Source of the DNA: a phage
Assembly (NCBI GenBank): GCA_036611895.1
Contig: GCA_036611895.1_4766.1
DNA length: 64,000 nt
Strand: one strand, 5' to 3'
The notes below the pieces were generated by a model. The model saw nothing but the letters and a program-made list of their open reading frames with translations. It did no database searches and was not told the DNA's origin. Positions 4,260-30,559 of this stretch are shown piece by piece. A program made the translations under genes and the position numbers. Within the stretch, counting starts at the first letter, position 1. Each line of letters starts with the position of its first letter.

Positions 4260-5570
4260 TTAGAAAGTTAGACCACCATACTTACTGGCAAGATTGCCAT
4301 AGAACACTACTCGCTTACGTGCACGGGATACAGCGACGTAAAGCAGACGGGCAACCATATCAGGTTGGCGACAGCTTGAGAGGTCATCTGCATCAATAAA
4401 GATTGTGTCGTAAGTAGAGCCTTGTGATTTATGGACAGTACATGCATGAGTAGCACGCAGGTCTGGAATGGTTTCTTTAAGACGGAAGTAAGGTTCCCAG
4501 TTCTTCTCCTTACCCAACCACTTAACCAAACGGTTGAAGTATTCTGGGTCAGTAGGTACTGGAACTTCACTTACAATACCACCATAACCAAGGTCCAGAG
4601 TACTATCACGAACTTCCAGTTCCAGGTCACCTGTAACTGGAATCATGCGAGTACTGCTATCCTGGTCAATGAGTTTTACGTCTTGCTCGATAGATAGACG
4701 GTCTTCCACACCTAAGCGAACAGCAGAGTTAGATACTAGTTGTTCACCAATGGAGTACTCACCCACGTAGCCATTAGCTTCACGAATGTAGTTATTGTAA
4801 TTAATAACCTGGTCATTCGTATAAGCAACAATACGGCTATTGGTAGGTTGAGTGAAGTGACTGAGAACCAGTTTCTCCATCTCTTCCCCCTGTACCCAGT
4901 CAATAATGCCCGGAATACATTTAATAGGCAGGAAGCCTGTCTTACCTTCCACCGTATCACGTAATTGCTGGTGCAATGCTTTGAGTTCCGGTGCATCGGT
5001 ACGCATCTGTTCAGTCAGATAGTGTGTTGGGATATTCCCTGCATACACTGGAGACTTATTCTCTTTAACAGGCAGAAGCTGAGAAGCATCCCCTACGAAT
5101 ACCAGCTTACACTGGTGAGTACCTTCACGAGCATACTTAAGTAACTGACGGTCAATCATGGATGCTTCGTCTACGAAGATGATTTTGTTCTTCTTAATAT
5201 TGAATGATTTAGACGGTACGACATTAGCCTCACCAGTCTTAAAGTCATTCTTAACAATCAATCCCTGGAAGGAATGATAGGTAGATGTTGGACGTCCAGT
5301 AGCCTGAGCCAGAACTTCGGCAGCCTTGTTCGTGGTCGCAGTCATAACAACTTCGTTATACAGGGGCTTGGTTCCCATAAGGGAGCAAGTTTCCATATAT
5401 GCAGGCATTGTGTCATCAATGAGGTGCGACATCAGGAATGTCTTACCAGTACCACCTGGGCCTGAAATTCCAAATTCGGTAGCATTAGGGTCGAGCAGGA
5501 AGTCGAAGAACTCCTTCGCAACCGCTTCTTGCCCCTTGTTCAGTGGGGCTTTGGTAGGTTTGGAAAACAT
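4260..5570 (-). CDS. SF1B DNA helicase (Dda/RecD-like)
   Basis: 436 aa. Walker A GPGGTGKT; motif II IIFVDEASMI; C-terminal HKSQGSTYD helicase motif. Confidence 0.85.
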   Translation of the reverse strand: MFSKPTKAPLNKGQEAVAKEFFDFLLDPNATEFGISGPGGTGKTFLMSHLIDDTMPAYMETCSLMGTKPLYNEVVMTATTNKAAEVLAQATGRPTSTYHSFQGLIVKNDFKTGEANVVPSKSFNIKKNKIIFVDEASMIDRQLLKYAREGTHQCKLVFVGDASQLLPVKENKSPVYAGNIPTHYLTEQMRTDAPELKALHQQLRDTVEGKTGFLPIKCIPGIIDWVQGEEMEKLVLSHFTQPTNSRIVAYTNDQVINYNNYIREANGYVGEYSIGEQLVSNSAVRLGVEDRLSIEQDVKLIDQDSSTRMIPVTGDLELEVRDSTLDLGYGGIVSEVPVPTDPEYFNRLVKWLGKEKNWEPYFRLKETIPDLRATHACTVHKSQGSTYDTIFIDADDLSSCRQPDMVARLLYVAVSRARKRVVFYGNLASKYGGLTF

Positions 5571-5603
5571 TAAAATCTCCAGTAAAAAACCCTCCGTAGA
5601 GGG

Positions 5604-6059
5604 TTAGATGTAAGGGGTTAAATCTGGGGGAGTATAGTCTTTCCCTTTCATAACTTTCTTATTCTCATTGAAGACAGGTTCCCCATCTTCAAACTTAGAA
5701 TAGTTTGAGCGATTGACTTCAGCCAATGCTCCAGGGACATTCATCCCAAGGAAAGTACCGACGCCAGTTGCTGTAACAATCTGGTCTGCCAGTGAATCCA
5801 GCAGGTTGGTACTGGCGTCAATGCGATAAGCATCGTCATTACGTTTCATATGGTTTGCCAGATTTGTAATGGCATCTTGTGCACGTTGTAGCAATTCTGC
5901 ATCGTAGCTACCATTTGGATAAATGGTCTGAAGCATTTCTTCTACTTCTTCCAGATGACAACCAATCTGGGTACTAATGTTCTTACTCGTCGGATTCGGT
6001 ACGGCTTTTAGAAACCATTGCCGTGTGTTTTCCAGCGTACAAACGGATGAACTTGTCAT
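5604..6059 (-). CDS. hypothetical protein (151 aa); start may be downstream of annotated ATG
   Basis: ORF track; 5' end overlaps upstream HTH gene by about 77 nt in another frame. Acidic helical motif HLEEVEEMLQ; function not assignable. Confidence 0.4.
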   Translation of the reverse strand: MTSSSVCTLENTRQWFLKAVPNPTSKNISTQIGCHLEEVEEMLQTIYPNGSYDAELLQRAQDAITNLANHMKRNDDAYRIDASTNLLDSLADQIVTATGVGTFLGMNVPGALAEVNRSNYSKFEDGEPVFNENKKVMKGKDYTPPDLTPYI

Positions 6060-6378
6060 GCTCAGTCTCTTGGTTAAGGTGGCGATTGTTATATGCCTCC
6101 AGAATCAAGTCTCTTACATATGAGCGAATCTCATAAGCAGGACCAACTTGTTCTGACAGCCAATCAGCCACATGGGTTGGTAAAGGACGTAATACGTTTT
6201 CCATGAACGTCCGACGTGTGTCGGCTGGTTCAATGTTTAGAGAACGCAATCGCAAAGTAACTGTAGTTGGGTGAACCCCCAACGTCTTAGCGATAGTTGC
6301 GAGGGACAGACCAACAGCATTCATACGAATGATGTCTTCATCGGTTGCTTTGCGATTACTTCTGAATACTTTAGACAT
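5983..6378 (-). CDS. helix-turn-helix DNA-binding protein
   Basis: 131 aa. HTH-like segment LSLATIAKTLGVHPTTVTLRL; RBS GAGGAAA about 9 nt upstream of ATG. Confidence 0.55.
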   Translation of the reverse strand: MSKVFRSNRKATDEDIIRMNAVGLSLATIAKTLGVHPTTVTLRLRSLNIEPADTRRTFMENVLRPLPTHVADWLSEQVGPAYEIRSYVRDLILEAYNNRHLNQETEHDKFIRLYAGKHTAMVSKSRTESDE

Positions 6379-6396
6379 AGCTTATTTCCTCTTCAA

Positions 6397-6430
6397 AGAT
6401 AGCCTCACTTTATTATAAGTGAGGCTATTT
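6397..6430. promoter_or_regulatory. Near-perfect palindrome (10-12 bp arms, 6-nt centre) immediately upstream of the HTH gene RBS; candidate operator or processing hairpin
   Basis: agcctcactt-tattat-aagtgaggct read directly in sequence; arms extend with flanking a/t pairs. Confidence 0.4.
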
Positions 6431-6604
6431 GAACAGGCTAGGACTGGTTCTTATACCATTCCCCGAACTCTTTCATTGCATCTTCTAAGGACAAGCCTTC
6501 AAAGAATTGACCAAAGTGTCCGTTGTACGTCACACAAATCCTTGTAACGGTTTACTTTAGGGGTGTGATTACTTCCCGTATAACCACCTTATCAATGCTA
6601 ATCA

Positions 6605-8665
6605 TTACTTAGTAGCCTTGATCAGCTTGGTAGCTAACTTAGTTTCTTCTTCAGTCAGTCCCATTGCAGTGAATGACTTCTTAGCATGACGCTTATAGTC
6701 TTGCAGAGCATGGCCTTTCTGATAGTCAGAGTACGTCGTATCGTTAAGGATGCTACGCAGATTATCAGCGTGTTTACCAGACGGAGCTACTTTAGTGGCA
6801 GCAGCAGAACGTGTAGGTTTAACTGTCTTATCCTGCTTAACAGCTTTAGGTTTACCAATAGGTTTAGCTGTATAGGTAGCACGTACATCAGCAATCTTAG
6901 CTACTACATCACTACCTACACCGAATGCACCCCAAGGCTTTCTGGCTTTGGAACGCAGTTCTACCAGAAGGTCAGCAGCAGCTAACTTATCTTCCGGTGT
7001 TGTTGCATTAAGGAACTCTTTGACTAGTTCCTGGATTTGTTCTTTCACAGTAGGAGCCTTCTTAATAGCAGGTTTAAGGTCAGTAGCTTTCACTGGTTCA
7101 GCAGCTACAGCTTCATTCAGCGACTCTTCCATGTTCAGCGCTTCTTTGCTAGCGACTGTACGGAATTGTTCTACAGAACCAGATGTGAGATTAGTGTATT
7201 TGAGGTTAGTACCACGATGACCACCAACCATAATAAGTGTGGTAGGTGAACTATGGTTCCCAACGATGGCATCATTAAGCAGCTTCTTACCTACCTCTGT
7301 CTTAGACAGATAGATACCGCTGTTAACGTTAAGACGTTCCTCTTCCGGTAGTTCAGCAATAATATGATATGCAGATACACGCATCTTATTGGTGCTGTAC
7401 TCAGGAACAGCAAATACATCTTCAGGTGCTACTTTACCAAGGATAGTTACGTCACCACCGAAGCTACGGATATAGCTCATGGATGCTACGTGCAGACCGT
7501 TAGAACAATCCTGACGACGGTCAGGGTCTACCAGGTCTTCACGTACCTGAACTTTACAGCCTACCCATTGACGAATTCTACCTGAGTGACAGTCAACGAA
7601 TACACGTCTACCATTTTCTGCGTCTTTATACTTCAGACGCTTCAGGAACAGGATTGAACCATCATCAGCAATAGGTAGCTCAGCAGTTTCCATGAATTTC
7701 ATCAGGTCTTCTACTGAGTGCAGACGGTCTTTAATAACCGGAGCCAGACGCTCAAGGAACTTAGTAAAGCCCTTGTAGTCTTTCAGCTGGGCAGACTGAC
7801 GTAGATGACGATGCAGGTTTTCAACTCCGGGGATAACCCCATTATTGGTAACAGCAACAACCACTTCGTCTTCCTTCACTTCGGTGTGAAAGTTAGCATC
7901 ATCAGTACTGATAGCACCTAATGCAGCCAGCTTCTCAGAAGCAGCAGCCAGCTTATCCTGGTTCGTAGTTTTAGCTATTTCTACATAAGGAGATGGCGTT
8001 ACATCACGACTGGTAAATACAATGTGTACTCCTTTGATGTGCTGAGCTTGTTTAGCAAACTCACTCATTTCATCATCGGATACTGCACGAATTGCAATAG
8101 GCCATTCTCGTGCAAGGATACGATTGGTATGGTCATAACCCCAACTCAGTACGTCATTGATAAAACGAACCAGTGCAGGATGGTTATGGTCCTTATCCCA
8201 GCCAGTAACCCACATCAGGTTTTCACGTCTGTCGTAGAAACCATCAGATACAGTTACTTCTGGTTCATTAGCCTGTACAGCCAGGAAGGTATCCATAGCT
8301 TTAGATACTAACGTCTTAGTAGGATTGCCCAGCTTAATATCTGAGACGATATGTGCAGGAGGAACACCTGTACCATCCTGGAAGAACTCTTTAAGTTTAG
8401 CTTTAGCTACCTTGAAGAAACGGACGAATCCGTTGGTGTTCTTCTCTGCTTCTAGATACTCAGTACGTAATGCTACTTCTGGCGCAATGTTTACTTCTAC
8501 CAGGTCTTTGGTGGTTCCCAGACCTTTGGTTTGTGCTTCAGATACAATGCGAGCAACCCGTGGGTCGTTCTGAGGATATACAATTGTGGAGCCATCAGGC
8601 TTCCACAGTGTGAGGTTACGACTGTCAACTGCCAGTGCGATGATAGAAATCAGTTCGATTTTCAT
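6605..8665 (-). CDS. rIIB: rIIB-like protein (assigned by synteny with upstream rIIA-like gene)
   Basis: 686 aa ORF directly downstream of the GHKL-ATPase gene with 5-nt spacing. No diagnostic motif; call is synteny only. Confidence 0.45.
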   Translation of the reverse strand: MKIELISIIALAVDSRNLTLWKPDGSTIVYPQNDPRVARIVSEAQTKGLGTTKDLVEVNIAPEVALRTEYLEAEKNTNGFVRFFKVAKAKLKEFFQDGTGVPPAHIVSDIKLGNPTKTLVSKAMDTFLAVQANEPEVTVSDGFYDRRENLMWVTGWDKDHNHPALVRFINDVLSWGYDHTNRILAREWPIAIRAVSDDEMSEFAKQAQHIKGVHIVFTSRDVTPSPYVEIAKTTNQDKLAAASEKLAALGAISTDDANFHTEVKEDEVVVAVTNNGVIPGVENLHRHLRQSAQLKDYKGFTKFLERLAPVIKDRLHSVEDLMKFMETAELPIADDGSILFLKRLKYKDAENGRRVFVDCHSGRIRQWVGCKVQVREDLVDPDRRQDCSNGLHVASMSYIRSFGGDVTILGKVAPEDVFAVPEYSTNKMRVSAYHIIAELPEEERLNVNSGIYLSKTEVGKKLLNDAIVGNHSSPTTLIMVGGHRGTNLKYTNLTSGSVEQFRTVASKEALNMEESLNEAVAAEPVKATDLKPAIKKAPTVKEQIQELVKEFLNATTPEDKLAAADLLVELRSKARKPWGAFGVGSDVVAKIADVRATYTAKPIGKPKAVKQDKTVKPTRSAAATKVAPSGKHADNLRSILNDTTYSDYQKGHALQDYKRHAKKSFTAMGLTEEETKLATKLIKATK

Positions 8666-8669
8666 CAGA

Positions 8670-11237
8670 TTAGTTACCTTTCAGTTTATTTAGACGATTA
8701 CGGTAGATGGACTTAAACCCAGGAATATCCTCTGGATTATTCTTAAGGTGTTTGACCAAACTACCTAAGTCCAGCGTCTGTAGAATGTCATTCTTATTCC
8801 AGTTATAACTGAATAATCCTTTGTAACCTTTCAGTATTTCAAAGTACTTATGGTTACGGGGGTTAACCATCATTGTATACGGTTCTAGGTCATCTACTGA
8901 TTTAATACAGCCCATTTCAACAAGTTTTTCTTTGTTGTTATGTGGTCGATTTCGTAGAAAGTCATATGCCCATTCATACTCTGGTTTAAAAATCAGATTC
9001 TGTAATGGTTTGAAGGTTAGGCCCAGTATGTCTAGAATTTCCCAATACTCTCTGTCATCCAGTCCTACGTATTCCAGAATACCAATACGGTGTTCAGTAA
9101 CATATTTCTTGAAGCCTTTACTGGTAATAACTGGCATCAGCTCCATAAAGCGAACATCATCAATGTGGATAGCACCACGTCGTTTAGCCTTGTTAGCTTC
9201 GATTTGATTTCGGCAGACAACTGTCTCTGCTTTCATCTCATCGGATAACTCATACCATTTCCACATGGTTCCAATTCGAGCAGTTACTGGACTACCAGTA
9301 CCAACCTGATTAGCCAGTACATAGTACTTAGGCTGTTCTACCTCAACGAAACCATATTTCTCATGGAAGCTCGGGTCAGCAAAACCTTTGTCAATGTAAG
9401 GTTTAGAATCCCAATCACCACTTTTATTCCGTACAGAAGTAGTACCAAGAACTGCATTCAATGAAATCAGAGCATTGGTTTTACCTCCTGCTTTGGTTTT
9501 ATTGGCAGCTATTGTCTTAGCACGTTTCTCAGCAGCTATCTTAGCCTGTTCTCTACGGTAGTTAGTTGGTTTGTCCCACTCATTATATTGAGTAAGGTCA
9601 ATTACCCGATAACCCATAGCAGTGAACTTAGCTACAGCCTCTTCTGCTGCACCCTTCTTAGGACCAACGACGTGAACAAAAGCTGTACGCTCCAGATCAC
9701 CTCGGTTGTATTCAGGGAAGTATGAGAAAGAGTCTGCACAATCAGATAAACGTCGGGTAACTACAACGTTCTTGGTAGTGAATATGCCGATACCCTGATG
9801 GGAGGTATGGTACATCTTAAAGTAGTCTGTAAGTTTACCTTTCACCAAGTCTACAGAATTACCCTGGTTCATTATGTAACCAGACCACTTAATACCAGAG
9901 ATTTTTAAAGCAGCAATCTGAGGTAAGTGCAGATGGCGATATACTAATTCATGGAATGGGGAGTATGTACTTTCTTTACGAGTATCCTTAAGAGCACGCA
10001 TAGCCTTACCATACAGTTTTTTAAGACCTGCATATTCAGGACGAGCTAACAATGCTTTATTGGATAGATTACGCCAATGCTTGATGTGATGCTTACGCTG
10101 CTTAGCCCACAAACTAGAGGACATATAGCGTTGAACAATTGGGTCTGTAACAGCAAGCAAGAAAGACGGATAGGTCCAGAAGCAGGTAGAGGATTTAGAA
10201 GCATATTCTTCAACCTGCTTAATAGCATCAGGAATTTTAGCCTTAATCTCTTTCTCCATACGGTCTACTAAATCTACGCATAGAGTAGTAATACCATCAT
10301 CAGTTAACTTCTGGTTAGACAGCGTTTCCCGACTAGGAGCAATAGCTAGAGTATCCGGTGCAGCCTGAACTACTAAATTGTCAGCACCAATAATATTCAT
10401 AAAGTTGAGGATAAGACCTACAGCTTCTTCACTAGCCGGGCTGGATACTATTGGGTACATTACGTTACCGTAGCGAACGTATATGTTACTACTCCCCATA
10501 TAGCCCTGATACCATTTATCAGACATATCATATGAACCAGGTTCAAATGACATACCTAACGTATCCAGTAAAGTGTAGTCGCCTTGCTGAATACTAATAC
10601 CTGTTTCTGTTTTAACGAGTTTAGTAGTACTTAGTTCAGCCTTAATCTCTCCATTGAACACAATAGACTTGATGTAATGTACAAATGTATTTACATCATG
10701 CTTACCCAGTTGGAATTTAACTTCCAGACCAGATTCCTCAGTGGGAATACCAGTAATAATAGGAACAATACCCGGTTTACCGTCATTCTCAATTGCAGCC
10801 TTAGCTACGTTATATACAGACATCTTTCCCTGGTTCCATGAAGTAACCTGGAAGCTATCTGTATAAGCGAATGGGGATTTACATCCCAGACCAAAGCCAC
10901 CAGTAACACTACTGTTGGCCTTCTTAGTAGATGCACCATAGACACCATAAATGGAACCAATGAGTTCATCCGGGATTCCGTTACCGTAGTCACGGAAGGT
11001 AATAAAGTTGTCTTTATCAATGGTAATACGAATAGGGGTATCAGTCTTACCTGCCTCAATATGAGCATCCCAACTGTTACAGATAGTCTCACGGACTACT
11101 GCCAGAGTAGGATTGTTATACAAGGAAGTACTTAATACATGGAAGAATGCCGGGTCATCAGAGATGCCAAAGGCAATTGTTTCTTTACCACCCAGTGTCG
11201 CTGAGGTAGCTACTTCATTGGTATCTGCAACTAACAT
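8670..11237 (-). CDS. rIIA: rIIA-like protein with N-terminal GHKL (histidine kinase-like) ATPase domain
   Basis: 855 aa. N-terminal ETICNSWDAH...FRDYGNGIP...GGFGLGCKS matches GHKL ATPase N, G1 and G2 boxes. Confidence 0.65.
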   Translation of the reverse strand: MLVADTNEVATSATLGGKETIAFGISDDPAFFHVLSTSLYNNPTLAVVRETICNSWDAHIEAGKTDTPIRITIDKDNFITFRDYGNGIPDELIGSIYGVYGASTKKANSSVTGGFGLGCKSPFAYTDSFQVTSWNQGKMSVYNVAKAAIENDGKPGIVPIITGIPTEESGLEVKFQLGKHDVNTFVHYIKSIVFNGEIKAELSTTKLVKTETGISIQQGDYTLLDTLGMSFEPGSYDMSDKWYQGYMGSSNIYVRYGNVMYPIVSSPASEEAVGLILNFMNIIGADNLVVQAAPDTLAIAPSRETLSNQKLTDDGITTLCVDLVDRMEKEIKAKIPDAIKQVEEYASKSSTCFWTYPSFLLAVTDPIVQRYMSSSLWAKQRKHHIKHWRNLSNKALLARPEYAGLKKLYGKAMRALKDTRKESTYSPFHELVYRHLHLPQIAALKISGIKWSGYIMNQGNSVDLVKGKLTDYFKMYHTSHQGIGIFTTKNVVVTRRLSDCADSFSYFPEYNRGDLERTAFVHVVGPKKGAAEEAVAKFTAMGYRVIDLTQYNEWDKPTNYRREQAKIAAEKRAKTIAANKTKAGGKTNALISLNAVLGTTSVRNKSGDWDSKPYIDKGFADPSFHEKYGFVEVEQPKYYVLANQVGTGSPVTARIGTMWKWYELSDEMKAETVVCRNQIEANKAKRRGAIHIDDVRFMELMPVITSKGFKKYVTEHRIGILEYVGLDDREYWEILDILGLTFKPLQNLIFKPEYEWAYDFLRNRPHNNKEKLVEMGCIKSVDDLEPYTMMVNPRNHKYFEILKGYKGLFSYNWNKNDILQTLDLGSLVKHLKNNPEDIPGFKSIYRNRLNKLKGN

Positions 11238-12247: not shown

Positions 12248-12276
12248 AAAAAGACCTCCCGGAGGAGGTCTTAGGT

Positions 12277-14277: not shown

Positions 14278-14394
14278 AAGAGTACCTATAATTAAAAAAG
14301 CCCACGGGTTAGGTGGGCTTGGGTTAGGAGATGGATAAGCAATGAGCTGGAAGCAACTTCCACAAGCACCACTATATAATGATGCTTAGGTTAG

Positions 14395-18982: not shown

Positions 18983-19049
18983 AGTTACCTTCTTAGTTAG
19001 TAGATTGATACATATTCATATAACAGACAAACAATAGTCAAAAAAAGAC

Positions 19050-19078
19050 CTCCCTTCAATAGGGAGGTCAAGCTTGGG
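19050..19078 (-). terminator. intrinsic terminator after decoration-protein gene
   Basis: gacctccc-ttcaata-gggaggtc hairpin preceded on plus strand by a7 (U-run after hairpin on minus strand). Confidence 0.5.
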
Positions 19079-20267: not shown

Positions 20268-21485
20268 TTAACTTAATGCATAGTCTGTTTCAAGAATGTC
20301 CTGCCAGAGGCTGTCATCCAGCTTACCAGCAGAGAACTCTTGTCCCAGTACCTGAGACAGGATGAAGCCTAGCAGGTCACTCTTAGCAATGTCAGACAGA
20401 ATCTGATTGTACTGACGACGTAGGTCATTACCGTAGTTAGGATGGCAACGGAAGCAGTCATGTACAGTCATTACAGGGAATGGTTTCTTAGGCATAGTGT
20501 CAATCATATCTGCTACTACCTGATGGTCTACATAAGCAATAGTGCATGGGTCAAGATAATCCAGGATTGATACGGATAGGAAGCCAGATTTCTCATAATG
20601 GCTCCACAGCTCCTGTACTTTCTCCAGATTGCCTGCAATCTCCCCATATTCTGATGGACCATCCTCACAGAGTTCTCGCACAGCTTCCACTAAGTCACGG
20701 TCGAAGTTACAACGACGCAGCATCTCACGCACCACCATCCCATCAATAGAGTGGGTGATGTTAGCAGAGAGCATACGAGTCTTCTCTTCTGTGCCCTGAA
20801 CCATACGAGTGATGTCGAATGGCTTACCTAAGAAGTTAACAGTCTGTACTTCAGGAATCATGACCTTAATGACAGCGTGGAAGTTGTCAGGCAGTACCCA
20901 TACGTAACGGTTGGCATCTGGATTACCACATTGCAGTAAGAACTTGTTAAGTGCCCAAGGACCACTAGCAACAGTTTCCATTACATTCTCAAAAGTCTTG
21001 AGACGAATACCTTCACCGAATACTTCTTTAGGCTTGGCTTCTGAGCCGTAGAATGCAGTCATAACTGCCTGCTTAGTGTCACTACGTTTAATACGAGATG
21101 CTTCACCAAGGATGTCCAGCATCTTGTGATAGATAACTGTATAGGCATCACGACGTAATGGCTTACCATTCTCTCCCATGTAGTTAACTACGTTACACAG
21201 TTCAGCAGCAGAACGGTCACCAGTCAGGCAAGCCAGTAACTGCAATCCGGATGATGTAGCATCCAGGGCTACGGCATAACCAATAGGCTTACCTGCTTTC
21301 ATATCTTTCCATGCATTTATACCTGCAAAGAACAGAGCAGAATCTTCAGCTTCATCTACCAGATTAAGCAGGTTAGCTTCGTTCTCATCGAACCAGGAGA
21401 TACGCTCATCCCATGTCTTTTTATCTAAGCCATAGTTATTAGCAATATCTACTTTCAGGTATTCACGAGCGGTTAACAGTTGCAT
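20268..21485 (-). CDS. phage RNA polymerase II, catalytic (C-terminal-type) subunit, T7-like single-subunit RNAP fold
   Basis: 405 aa. ALDATSSGLQ resembles T7 motif A (DGSCSGIQ); RSDTKQAVMTAFYGS resembles motif B with K-to-Y spacing of 8; MTVHDCF resembles motif C. RBS AAGGAA upstream. Confidence 0.85.
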   Translation of the reverse strand: MQLLTAREYLKVDIANNYGLDKKTWDERISWFDENEANLLNLVDEAEDSALFFAGINAWKDMKAGKPIGYAVALDATSSGLQLLACLTGDRSAAELCNVVNYMGENGKPLRRDAYTVIYHKMLDILGEASRIKRSDTKQAVMTAFYGSEAKPKEVFGEGIRLKTFENVMETVASGPWALNKFLLQCGNPDANRYVWVLPDNFHAVIKVMIPEVQTVNFLGKPFDITRMVQGTEEKTRMLSANITHSIDGMVVREMLRRCNFDRDLVEAVRELCEDGPSEYGEIAGNLEKVQELWSHYEKSGFLSVSILDYLDPCTIAYVDHQVVADMIDTMPKKPFPVMTVHDCFRCHPNYGNDLRRQYNQILSDIAKSDLLGFILSQVLGQEFSAGKLDDSLWQDILETDYALS

Positions 21486-21539: not shown

Positions 21540-21656
21540 TTATTTACGTTTACGTTTACGTTTGGCCTCTGCCTCACGTTTGAGAGCTTCGTTAATACGC
21601 TTTAACACTAGTTCTCTGTGAGCATAGAAGTCAGCTACTGCACGATGATTAATCAT
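21540..21656 (-). CDS. candidate 38-aa highly basic micro-protein (C-terminal KRKRKRK)
   Basis: Hand translation MINHRAVADFYAHRELVLKRINEALKREAEAKRKRKRK; ATG overlaps stop of upstream RNAP II small-subunit gene (ATGATTAA). Below ORF-track size cutoff. Confidence 0.3.
   Translation of the reverse strand: MINHRAVADFYAHRELVLKRINEALKREAEAKRKRKRK
21543..21563. repeat. (ACGTTT)3 perfect tandem hexamer repeat
   Basis: tttacgtttacgtttacgttt read directly; encodes the KRKRKR tail of the micro-ORF on the minus strand. Confidence 0.8.
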
Positions 21657-22467
21657 TGTTTACTAGCTCCTTATCAGCGAACTCCAGTACAGCTTTGTTG
21701 TAGCTGGTTCCCTGATAGTTGATGTGGTAGCCGCAGGCATATGTACGCCCACGTTTGTCATACTTGTGAGCCAGTGAGAAGTTATTACCTTCTTTGGTTA
21801 CTAACTCCATTACTTCCTTAGCTGTACGGCTGTACTTCTCAAAGGCTTTAACACGTTTCTCATAGTCCTGACGGGTTTCACCCTCTTTGGGTTTATCCAT
21901 GTTAGGACGAGAGTCTTTTACATAGTTAGCAACGTCCCAGTTAATACAGAGACGTTGGTTATTCATACGGTTGATGTGGTCAAGACAGACATCCATCTCA
22001 TGATGGTTCTTCTTGAGGATGATGCTACCTCTGCTTTCATAGTAACCAGTATCACGATTACACAGAACAGGCTTAGGAGCACTTACGATAGGCAATGGAT
22101 ACTGGAATGCTTCCAGTTCCATCTGAACATCTTCACTAATCTCATAGATAACACCGAACTTGTCGATGGTAGGGTCATAGTTGAAGCAGTCATTCTCTGC
22201 CATCTTATATAGGCAGTCAGCGATGTACTGAGCATCATCTGAGTGACTCATGAGAGAGCCAATCATAGTTTGGATGTCAGCACGTTTATGTAAGGCAATC
22301 TGCACCATTGCATCAATGAGCAGCTTATAATCAATTTCTAAATAGGCAGCGAATGCCTTAAAGTCAATTTCTTCGGAGTCCTCGAATTCCTTCCTCATGC
22401 GAGGGAGTAATTGATTCTTGTTGAAAAGGATTTCAAGTCGCTTCTGATGTTCAATAGATGAGTACAT
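21649..22467 (-). CDS. phage RNA polymerase II, N-terminal-type subunit
   Basis: 272 aa. KYDKRGRTYACGYHINYQG resembles the T7 RNAP DxRGR region; directly upstream of the catalytic subunit. Confidence 0.7.
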   Translation of the reverse strand: MYSSIEHQKRLEILFNKNQLLPRMRKEFEDSEEIDFKAFAAYLEIDYKLLIDAMVQIALHKRADIQTMIGSLMSHSDDAQYIADCLYKMAENDCFNYDPTIDKFGVIYEISEDVQMELEAFQYPLPIVSAPKPVLCNRDTGYYESRGSIILKKNHHEMDVCLDHINRMNNQRLCINWDVANYVKDSRPNMDKPKEGETRQDYEKRVKAFEKYSRTAKEVMELVTKEGNNFSLAHKYDKRGRTYACGYHINYQGTSYNKAVLEFADKELVNND

Positions 22468-22494: not shown

Positions 22495-22520
22495 ACCAAA
22501 AGCTGCGGAGCAGCTATTAC
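22495..22520 (-). promoter_or_regulatory. vRNAP-type hairpin promoter candidate (P-d), 45 nt upstream of RNAP II gene
   Basis: agctgc-gga-gcagct: 6-bp stem, GGA loop, same architecture as the three hairpins at 26.98-28.16 kb; preceded by aaccaaa. Confidence 0.45.
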
Positions 22521-26444: not shown

Positions 26445-26475
26445 GTCTAGTTAAAAATAAAAGACTCCCCGAAGG
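26445..26475 (-). terminator. intrinsic terminator after first early gene of promoter P-c
   Basis: gactccc-cgaa-gggagtc hairpin preceded on plus strand by aaaaataaaa. Confidence 0.45.
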
Positions 26476-26490
26476 GAGTCTATTGGTTGA

Positions 26491-26969: not shown

Positions 26970-27000
26970 TCATCCATAAGACGCGGAGCGTCTTGGTTTT
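26970..27000 (-). promoter_or_regulatory. vRNAP-type hairpin early promoter (P-c)
   Basis: tccataa-gacgc-gga-gcgtc-ttggtttt: 5-7 bp stem with GGA loop; conserved flanks shared with P-b. Confidence 0.6.
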
Positions 27001-27299: not shown

Positions 27300-27325
27300 T
27301 CCAATAGAAGCGGAGCTTCTTGGTT
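27300..27325 (-). promoter_or_regulatory. vRNAP-type hairpin early promoter (P-b)
   Basis: tccaata-gaagc-gga-gcttc-ttggtttt; matches the N4 early promoter hairpin as I recall it (GAAGCGGAGCTTC). Confidence 0.6.
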
Positions 27326-28145: not shown

Positions 28146-28168
28146 TCCATAACATGCGGAGCATGTGT
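28146..28168 (-). promoter_or_regulatory. vRNAP-type hairpin early promoter (P-a)
   Basis: tccataa-catgc-gga-gcatg: same stem/GGA-loop architecture and tccataa flank. Confidence 0.55.
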
Positions 28169-30374: not shown

Positions 30375-30410
30375 GAAAAAGAAATGGGGTAGAGCCTCTC
30401 GACTCTACCC
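30375..30410 (-). terminator. intrinsic terminator inside the paralog array, just upstream of P2 RBS
   Basis: ggggtagag-cctctcga-ctctacccc (9-bp stem) preceded on plus strand by aaaaagaaa. Confidence 0.5.
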
Positions 30411-30559
30411 CTTACCGTTTTCTATCACGGGTCAGTTCATCACCCTAGATACATGTGTATCGTTAGCCTACTAGGTAGGAAAGGAGCCGGGCAACCCTGA
30501 CTGTAGAAGTTATTAACTCTTTACGAGTACCGCCACTGTCTACTAGGCGGCATGACTAA

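Follow-up and report, generated by a model that had tools for sequence, protein, structure and literature searches.

A conserved, covarying stem-loop at the rIIB-gp35 junction of N4-like phages is predicted to pair with the gp35 ribosome-binding site

The DNA analysed here, referred to below as the window, is a 64,000-nucleotide stretch of a G7C/N4-like phage (Gamaleyavirus). A BLAST search of positions 5900-6900 against phage records returned 106 hits, with Gamaleyavirus (G7C-like) coliphages of the N4 family as the top matches at 86-96% identity. Every gene in the part of the window around the palindrome that is the subject of this work is carried by the minus strand. From upstream to downstream, the order is gp33, gp34, a 226-nt space, gp35, gp36, the helicase gene and the DNA polymerase gene, and this order from gp33 to DNA polymerase is identical in G7C and N4. 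Orthologues of gp34 are annotated as rIIB-like or as RIIB lysis inhibitor in G7C, IME11 and others, and G7C-like phages possess gp1 and gp2 of the N4 type. The features of the locus are listed in Table 1.

Table 1. Features at the rIIB-gp35 junction of the window, ordered along the direction of transcription.
Feature	Positions	Strand	Remarks
gp33, rIIA-like	8670-11237	-	
gp34, rIIB-like, 686 aa	6605-8665	-	stop TAA 6605-6607; from the ORF list
Small accessory ORF, 55 codons plus stop	6438-6605	-	intact in six relatives, broken in the window
In-frame GTG, preceded by AAGGA (6539-6543)	6531-6533	-	ORF 6438-6533, 31 aa
Whole element	6376-6448	-	match of a covariance model built from 34 relatives
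Outer helix, 5' arm	6429-6437	-	CCU 6435-6437 (anti-SD), unpaired G 6434, UUCAA 6429-6433; repeat, MFE and centroid folds
Inner stem, 5' arm AUAGCCUCACUU	6417-6428	-	inverted repeat, fold
Hairpin loop AUAAUA	6411-6416	-	inverted repeat, fold
Inner stem, 3' arm AAGUGAGGCUAU	6399-6410	-	inverted repeat, fold
U-rich tract UAUCUUUGAA	6392-6401	-	after the GC-rich 9-bp core; imperfect terminator tail
UUGAA, outer helix 3' arm	6392-6396	-	within the U-rich tract
gp35 Shine-Dalgarno core GAGG	6388-6391	-	9 nt before the AUG; AGG 6388-6390 pairs with CCU 6435-6437
gp35, 131 aa	5983-6378	-	N-terminal helix-turn-helix-like domain; ATG at 6378

The space between the rIIB-like stop codon and the start of gp35 had been described in the original prediction as a noncoding gap of about 225 bp that is unusual in a densely packed block. 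The size is correct at 226 nt, but the gap is not simply noncoding, as 168 nt of it belong to a small ORF that is intact in six relatives and the remaining 60 nt or so form a structured spacer. Nor is its length exceptional, since gaps of 117-650 nt are found elsewhere on this strand in a mechanical ORF map of the block. The small ORF is intact and annotated in IME11, ZQ2, Bas96, Mimir124, K57alpha1.2 and NAN33P5, and the copy in the window is the sole interrupted one when set against these six, with a CAA to TAA change at codon 18 (positions 6552-6554). In G7C the spacer between rIIB and gp35 measures only 62 nt, and a stem_loop is marked there in the GenBank record; the DNA that IME11 and ZQ2 have in addition is the annotated 168-nt ORF. 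Alignment places a 164-nt insert exactly between the TAA and the next TAG of the G7C arrangement; thus, the ORF starts at TAATG, where its ATG overlaps the rIIB stop codon, and ends at the TAG (6438-6440) that abuts the outer helix. The insert thereby preserves a TAG stop codon directly beside the CCUG of the helix. No family in Pfam or PHROG was found for the small-ORF protein. Judging from the in-frame GTG and the AAGGA before it, translation might restart within the broken ORF and yield a 31-aa C-terminal product. For annotation purposes, the 226-nt gap is best recorded as a disrupted small ORF followed by a structured 60-nt spacer.

The structured spacer contains an inverted repeat with perfect 12-nt arms, ATAGCCTCACTT and AAGTGAGGCTAT, and 6 nt between them. 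A palindrome abutting the ribosome-binding site of the next gene had been proposed at this position, and both elements of the proposal hold, with arms slightly longer than the 10-nt sequences originally written out: the hairpin ends 20 nt short of the gp35 ATG, and the GAGG Shine-Dalgarno (SD) core sits in between. This palindrome is the longest perfect hairpin of the window, and when the window was simulated 60 times with a first-order Markov model, a perfect hairpin of at least 12 bp with a loop of 3-8 nt arose in only 2 runs. It is extended by a second, imperfect repeat (6388-6397 with 6428-6437), bringing the total helix to 20 bp, made up of the inner 12 bp and extensions of 5 bp and 3 bp, and interrupted by a bulge of 2 nt and a 1x1 internal loop. 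Written as RNA of the coding strand, the element reads CCU-G-UUCAA-AUAGCCUCACUU-(AUAAUA)-AAGUGAGGCUAU-CU-UUGAA-G-AGG-AAAUAAGCU-AUG. The fold of the 73-nt element has an energy of -28.5 kcal/mol, corresponding to z = -6.0 against dinucleotide shuffles.

An IMG/VR scan with gp35 provided 52 N4-like loci, including N4 itself (L015), of which 50 are distinct. About 40 of the 50 distinct upstream regions, that of N4 included, contain a stem of 7-18 bp with its 3' end 16-24 nt from the gp35 ATG, and the loops are AT-rich and 3-8 nt long. The hosts of these loci extend from enterobacteria to Achromobacter and Erwinia, with environmental contigs in addition. The stem is AGCCTCACTT in the G7C group, AGCTCCAGT or AGCCTCAGT in the N4 group and ACCTCTAGTC in many environmental contigs, while in L033, L035, L039, L040, L045, L052 and L055 it is formed by unrelated GC-rich sequences. 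The arms differ entirely between clades (CCTCACTT, CTCCAGT, CCTCTAGTC, CCCGCAGGTC, CACCCCAAACTAA, CCCCCCACCT). Even between the window and G7C the stem shows one G-C to C-G swap and one A-U to G.U change.

These sequence changes preserve pairing. From 34 sequences aligned by MAFFT without guidance, RNAalifold recovered 9 core pairs, each with at least one compensatory double change. When the 20-pair structure was placed on the MAFFT alignment, it was 79% paired and 120 double-sided changes were counted, compared with 38-52% and 28-51, respectively, when the partners were slid; the covariation score was 0.474 as opposed to 0.09-0.21 for the slid partners, and none of 500 shuffles attained 0.474. 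An alignment guided by a covariance model gives 84% pairing and a score of 0.50, values to be read with the fact that such an alignment itself leans towards the model. In this model-guided alignment the outer-helix pairs are retained in 27-32 of 37 sequences, and the SD pairs include CG-to-UA changes. Across the 64 kb of the window, only one match to the covariance model is significant (69.9 bits, E = 1.7e-13; the runner-up scores 16.8 bits), and in 36 kb of G7C there is likewise one. In an exact IMG/VR scan, the distant-clade motif CTAGAGGTATCTTTTATGGAG turned up in 2 contigs, once in each genome. A scan of positions 5900-6900 against Rfam at E <= 10 gave only chance matches, with E of about 2 and scores far below the gathering scores. 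Conservation in relatives had been named in the original prediction as a check, and the retained position of the hairpin together with its compensatory changes answers it in the affirmative; the view of the palindrome as a non-random regulatory element tied to the ribosome-binding site of the next gene is also upheld. Judged by comparative sequence data, the rIIB-gp35 junction carries a genuine stem-loop that is kept across the family with covariation, and the base of this stem-loop is predicted to pair with the gp35 ribosome-binding site.

The outermost pairs of the helix join the nucleotides right after the upstream stop codon to the Shine-Dalgarno sequence of gp35. The SD core has a pairing probability of about 0.9 in the window and at most loci, and at least three of its four nucleotides are paired in the MFE structure at 39 of 50 loci. 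In an alignment-free test of the flanks, with the hairpin held fixed, native combinations of 5' and 3' flanks gave a mean of -10.5 kcal/mol. Shuffling the 5' flanks raised the mean to -6.1 kcal/mol (native lower in 37 of 41), and swapping flanks across loci raised it to -7.4 kcal/mol (native lower in 33 of 41), the latter being a conservative control, as there are close relatives among the loci. Opening the gp35 ribosome-binding site (-15 to +4 around the start) takes 9.5 kcal/mol in the window, which ranks 7th of 60 genes, and the orthologues have a median of 10.3 kcal/mol compared with 6.0 kcal/mol (sd 2.2) for the 60 genes of the window. These energies indicate that the mask is consistent across the family and moderate in the phage of the window.

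The position of the upstream stop codon is also informative. At most loci 59-70 nt separate the rIIB stop from the gp35 ATG, so that the element takes up essentially the whole spacer. The distance from the upstream stop to the beginning of the anti-SD arm is 0-10 nt at about 25 of the 50 loci and 14-47 nt at about 12. In the window, a close upstream stop is available only via the small ORF, which has the premature stop described above. As a matter of sequence geometry, the arrangement fits an unmasking of the SD by the terminating ribosome without constituting proof of it. At loci L012-14, a gene for a 158-aa HNH homing endonuclease lies between the hairpin and gp35. The hairpin has stayed beside the rIIB stop and now precedes the SD of the endonuclease gene itself, and gp35 is left with a weak hairpin only. 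This indicates that the element belongs to the 3' end of rIIB at least as much as to gp35 and that loss of the mask is tolerated.

Several observations bear on the strand on which the element acts. The sense RNA folds better than the antisense RNA at 43 of 50 loci, with a mean difference of 3.7 kcal/mol (Wilcoxon p = 2.5e-6), in a comparison among relatives that are phylogenetically non-independent. In the window itself the sense and antisense folds are equally stable because the palindrome is perfect. On the fixed alignment, G.U combinations outnumber A.C combinations by 56 to 40 (p = 0.13), with 25 to 12 in the inner stem, and as a strand test these raw counts are only suggestive. Given these counts and the equal folds in the window, the evidence for the strand rests on the non-independent relatives.

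The sequence that follows the stem is terminator-like at about half of the loci. Under a relaxed criterion, by which 5 or more of the 8 nt behind a stem with 3 or more G-C pairs must be T, 26 of 50 loci have a terminator-like tail on the sense strand, compared with 6 of 50 on the antisense strand. The T-runs of relatives, for example GGTATCTTTTATGGAG, are clearer than that of the window, and the U-tract of the G7C/N4 clade is poor (UAUCUUUG or UAAAUUUG). A terminator scan calls the hairpin in L026. In the scan of positions 5500-7500 the window hairpin was not called; the scan uses the full stem, after which the tail reads CUUUGAAG, and with the stem trimmed to 9 bp the tail becomes UAUCUUUG, with 5 T in 8. 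The stem core has 9 bp with 5 G-C pairs, and the element directly follows the stop codon of rIIB or of the small ORF. Comparable pairing of an SD is not seen at other sites in the window where a hairpin is combined with a T-run, for example ahead of the helicase gene (5588-5605).

With about equal measures of confidence and doubt, we infer that the element is a leaky terminator or mRNA 3'-end hairpin of the rII transcript that also limits or couples the translation of gp35. The palindrome would then be the DNA image of an RNA stem-loop in a middle-gene transcript of the minus strand. The GC-rich core and the U-rich tract could act as a leaky terminator of the intrinsic type and as a 3'-end stabiliser of the rIIA/rIIB transcripts made by the T7-like RNAPII. 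In transcripts that read through, the base of the extended helix would hide the gp35 ribosome-binding site, and gp35 would be translated poorly. A ribosome finishing the upstream ORF, the stop codon of which lies 0-10 nt before the anti-SD arm, might melt the base of the helix and thereby couple translation of the two genes. In the phage of the window, the premature stop in the small ORF may have weakened this coupling or made it reliant on restart at the internal GTG. In N4, knockdown of rIIA or rIIB with dCas13d left infection unimpaired without Rex (PMC11879866). If gp35 is essential, its coupling to rIIB therefore cannot be strict.

Hairpins are also known from the promoters of N4-like phages. 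The early promoters of N4, recognised by vRNAP, have a 5-7-bp stem, a 3-nt loop and a GC-rich heptamer centred at -11 (PMC4496689), and the RNAPII promoters of N4 start at T and are AT-rich between -7 and +2 (PMC4496689, PMC9163698). The middle promoters of LUZ7 are GC-rich hairpins with a stem of at least 6 bp and a loop of 3-4 nt, and their transcription start site (TSS) is a G located about 15 bp downstream of the hairpin; according to the same study, promoters in N4 have a different architecture, which is sequence-specific rather than hairpin-based (PMC9163698). Early-type hairpins with GCTCCGC occur in the window at 22505, 26983, 27310 and 28156, and an assignment of the element as an early promoter of the N4 vRNAP type was rejected, as its 12-bp stem and 6-nt AU loop are unlike these four. 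By the LUZ7-type criteria, the stem length of the element is compatible, and its loop is 6 nt, or 3-8 nt in relatives. To our knowledge, LUZ7 is the sole N4-like phage with mapped TSS and TTS. It has no gp35 beside rIIB and so no orthologous junction. The 3'-flank motif TATCTTTGAAGAGGAA has three matches in the window with up to 3 mismatches, compared with 0.8 expected, and 4 of 100 shuffles reach three; its only exact match is the element itself, and its sub-motifs were not found upstream of other genes in the window. A conserved ATCTTT(T/G) partially resembles ATCTGTT, the class II signal of T7 RNAP. A sigma-70 scan of positions 5500-7500 gave no promoter-like site.

Against this background, the hairpin may instead be associated with a promoter. 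It could be a LUZ7-type RNAPII middle promoter, or a promoter could lie inside or just after the hairpin and give rise to transcripts that lack the 5' arm and thus have a free SD. In this second form read-through transcripts would remain masked, as in the transcript-specific translation of the phage T4 genes e, soc and I-TevI. Taken jointly, the two forms appear to us unlikely, though they deserve consideration. Masking of the SD would make sense if it were limited to read-through transcripts, and the replication genes downstream would need a promoter if hairpins terminate transcription upstream of them. The tract after the stem, UAUCUUUGAA, is AT-rich as in the N4 RNAPII promoters, and the LUZ7 spacing of about 15 bp between GC-rich hairpin and TSS (PMC9163698), when counted as 15 nt from the loop centre, leads to about 6398-6399. 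However, the loop is AT-rich and 6 nt long rather than 3-4 nt, the covariance model gives no second copy in the window, and neither TATCTTTGAAGAGGAA nor its sub-motifs recur upstream of other middle genes. N4 architecture is not hairpin-based according to the LUZ7 authors (PMC9163698), and the gp1 and gp2 of G7C-like phages are of the N4 type. The G.U pairs and the better folding of the sense RNA in relatives are likewise a poor fit to a hairpin in template-strand DNA. The original prediction had offered a middle promoter with a processing hairpin as its second option; the RNA hairpin in this option points the right way, and for a promoter neither the sigma-70 scan of 5500-7500 nor the search for further copies of the flank gave evidence.

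It is also conceivable that the element is a hairpin for RNA processing or stability that operates without termination. For example, the RNase III of the host could cut the 20-bp stem, part the rIIB and gp35 messages and free the SD. The helix, with its 2-nt bulge and 1x1 internal loop, has the length of about two turns of irregular dsRNA, and the element is intergenic, covarying and SD-masking, with a U-tract in the G7C/N4 clade that is weak for a terminator. The canonical T-runs of distant clades would, however, be needless in a pure processing site, and the breadth of hosts, from enterobacteria to Achromobacter, Erwinia and those of environmental contigs, also speaks against this explanation, to which we assign a small chance of being correct. 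Cleavage by RNase III is possible alongside the SD mask and does not exclude termination.

A slimmer chance is given to a transcript-specific translational gate, in which the SD mask would silence gp35 on the read-through rIIA/rIIB transcripts until a second event unmasks it at a defined time. Candidates for such an event are RNAPII initiation within the hairpin or directly behind it, cleavage by RNase III, and binding of gp35 to the hairpin of its own mRNA. Were such a gate real, it would offer a first handle on how the middle transcription units of N4-type phages are delimited.

The main proposal of the original prediction was an autoregulated repressor/operator pair, which we take here to mean that the HTH protein gp35 binds the palindrome in double-stranded DNA as a dimer and represses its own gene. 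The product of gp35 belongs to PHROG 6377 (unknown function), is conserved in N4-like phages and has 419 relatives in clusters from N4-sized contigs. The HTH label attached to it is backed by sub-threshold matches. Pfam HTH_38 and HTH_23 match with E of about 3e-4 to 6e-4, under their gathering scores, and searches of PDB sequences with gp35 and its profile gave nothing meaningful. An AlphaFold model (pLDDT 72.8) contains helices at residues 13-22, 26-33 and 37-46, and the PDB matches of Foldseek to this three-helix unit (13-46) are all HTH DNA-binding domains, none of them at E <= 0.001. The putative recognition helix, HPTT(V/I)TLRL, and the PADTRRTFME that follows are nearly invariant among 50 orthologues.

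An operator would account for a perfect palindrome directly upstream of the ribosome-binding site of a gene with an HTH-like N-terminus, for the part of the arm that is common between clades (CCTC...GAGG) and for the equal folding of both strands of the window. The autoregulatory proposal is nevertheless contradicted by the comparison of protein and site. The nearly invariant helix would have to read arms as different as CCTCACTT, CCCGCAGGTC and CACCCCAAACTAA, as well as the unrelated ones of L033, L035, L039, L040, L045, L052 and L055, and loops of 3-8 nt alter the spacing of half-sites by 5 nt; thus, one reading head cannot recognise all of them. Moreover, complementarity is continuous to the loop and is held by compensatory and G.U pairs, the T-run is on the sense strand (26 of 50 loci against 6 of 50), and the outer helix takes in the SD, which is a signal at the RNA level. 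At L012-14 the hairpin is found with the rIIB stop, the HNH gene separating it from gp35, and between 5500 and 7500 the scan gives no sigma-70-like promoter to repress. The invariant helix, the T-run of the sense strand and the helix that pairs with the SD make an operator for gp35 very improbable. Finally, a chance or neutral palindrome, for which one can say that a lone perfect 12-bp hairpin per 64 kb is not astronomically rare (2 of 60 simulations), is given practically no credence and is already refuted by the comparative data, in which about 40 of 50 loci keep the position, compensatory changes are present, and 0 of 500 shuffles reach the observed covariation.

N4-like phages employ three RNA polymerases, and the signals at which middle transcription starts and stops are still poorly defined. 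The element, held at one gene junction across the family, is a concrete and cheap target in this respect, and its study could reveal what insulates the rII module from the replication module and how the dosage of gp35 is set. A terminator combined with an SD mask is a well-known mechanism, and specialists are not expected to be surprised by it. The conserved architecture is absent from Rfam and from the literature searched, and it is on record only as the functionless stem_loop of G7C. The element is thus ordinary in kind and undescribed in detail.

The closest entry on record is the GenBank entry of G7C (HQ259105, vB_EcoP_G7C), which marks the orthologous stem_loop at 20939-20962 between gp34 and gp35. 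It does so without a function, without the outer SD-masking helix and without a comparison of N4-like phages. The promoter hairpins of N4 vRNAP (early) and of LUZ7 (middle) resemble the element as DNA inverted repeats upstream of genes in N4-like phages. They differ from it in their loops, which have 3 nt and 3-4 nt, respectively, compared with 6 AT-rich nt here, and there is no common motif.

RNase III sites are well known from the early intergenic regions of T7 and from the N leader of lambda. Like those of the T7 early mRNA and the lambda N leader, the element is an irregular intergenic hairpin of about 20 bp, the removal of which would expose a ribosome-binding site; unlike them, it is accompanied by T-runs in many relatives, and cleavage is only proposed here. 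Intrinsic (rho-independent, class I) terminators, including the leaky ones of phage operons, share with the element a GC-containing stem-loop that directly follows a stop codon and is oriented with transcription. A U-rich tract comes next, which is clear in many relatives (GGTATCTTTTATGG, GGTTATTTTTAAGG), and the A-rich 5' flank of the element pairs with this tract. In contrast to such terminators, the U-tract of the window and of the N4/G7C clade is interrupted (UAUCUUUG), the fairly AT-rich stem has an unusual length of 12 bp (20 bp when extended), and the transcribing enzyme would be the T7-like RNAPII of N4.

Hairpins that sequester an SD are known to couple the translation of adjacent cistrons in RNA coliphages and bacterial operons. 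The element deviates from these in that its mask wraps a terminator-like hairpin, that opening the site costs a moderate 9.5 kcal/mol in the window (7th of 60 genes) and that about a quarter of the loci have a more distant stop. In other respects the likeness is considerable: the downstream SD pairs with a segment 0-10 nt past the upstream stop, the helix is conserved with covariation, and the chain of rIIB, TAATG, small ORF, TAG and helix keeps this geometry.

The junction between rIIB and gp35, the gene with an HTH-like N-terminus, is an insertion hot spot, as shown by the HNH homing-endonuclease genes inserted around gp35 in relatives (Mimir124 and other N4-like loci) together with the 164-nt insert that carries a small accessory ORF upstream of the conserved hairpin. 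An HNH gene is likewise annotated in the gp35 region of pSb-1. The small ORF is unbroken in six G7C-like phages, while in the window copy codon 18 has changed from CAA to TAA, giving a stop at 6552-6554 (-) that could be a genuine mutation, a sequencing error or the mark of a pseudogene. An in-frame GTG at 6531-6533 (-) lies 5 nt downstream of a good Shine-Dalgarno (SD) sequence, AAGGA (6539-6543), and restart there could yield a 31-aa C-terminal product.

gp35 itself is very strongly conserved across residues 8-60 (window 6199-6357; NRKAxDxDIxRxNxxGLSLxTIAxxLxxHPTTxTLRLxxLxxxPADTRRTFME) in 50 orthologues as well as 419 database clusters, and N4-sized contigs are apparently the source of them all. 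By mechanical gene calls gp35 overlaps by 77 nt (window 5983-6059) with gp36, for which relatives carry the annotation nucleotide pyrophosphohydrolase, and the G7C and N4 records show the same overlap.

In L022 and L023 (both 1460-1500), two gp35 loci of relatives, the 5' arm of the hairpin is absent and TAGAGG(C/T)ATCTTTTA is retained. Both have a short local hairpin, GGCATCT-TTTAGG-AGATGCC, in which the SD itself is paired, and this is a different route to masking the gp35 ribosome-binding site. Along the minus-strand block of the window, a GC-rich hairpin with a run of 5-7 T after it repeatedly lies 15-25 nt upstream of the next gene's SD; an SD-masking outer helix was found at none of these six canonical sites.

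Hairpins, accessory ORF and inserted genes in the window and in relatives
Feature	Position	Strand	Remark
GC-rich hairpin + T-run	5588-5605	-	canonical
GC-rich hairpin + T-run	12251-12272	-	canonical
GC-rich hairpin + T-run	14298-14320	-	canonical
GC-rich hairpin + T-run	19047-19069	-	canonical
GC-rich hairpin + T-run	26462-26481	-	canonical
GC-rich hairpin + T-run	30386-30411	-	canonical
GCTCCGC hairpin	22505-22511	-	intergenic
GCTCCGC hairpin	26983-26989	-	intergenic
GCTCCGC hairpin	27310-27316	-	intergenic
GCTCCGC hairpin	28156-28162	-	intergenic
Small accessory ORF	6438-6605	-	55 codons; broken in window copy
HNH gene, hairpin to gp35	L012:970-1446		also in L013, L014
HNH gene, gp35 to gp36	L061:2403-2882		Mimir124

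Four further hairpins, one of them upstream of the gene at 21649-22467, share the GC-rich heptamer GCTCCGC, with a stem of 5-6 bp and a loop of 3 nt, and are followed on their 3' side by (T)TATGGA, TATTGGA or TTTTGG. These features match the published description of the early promoters of the N4 virion RNA polymerase, for which the four hairpins are candidates.
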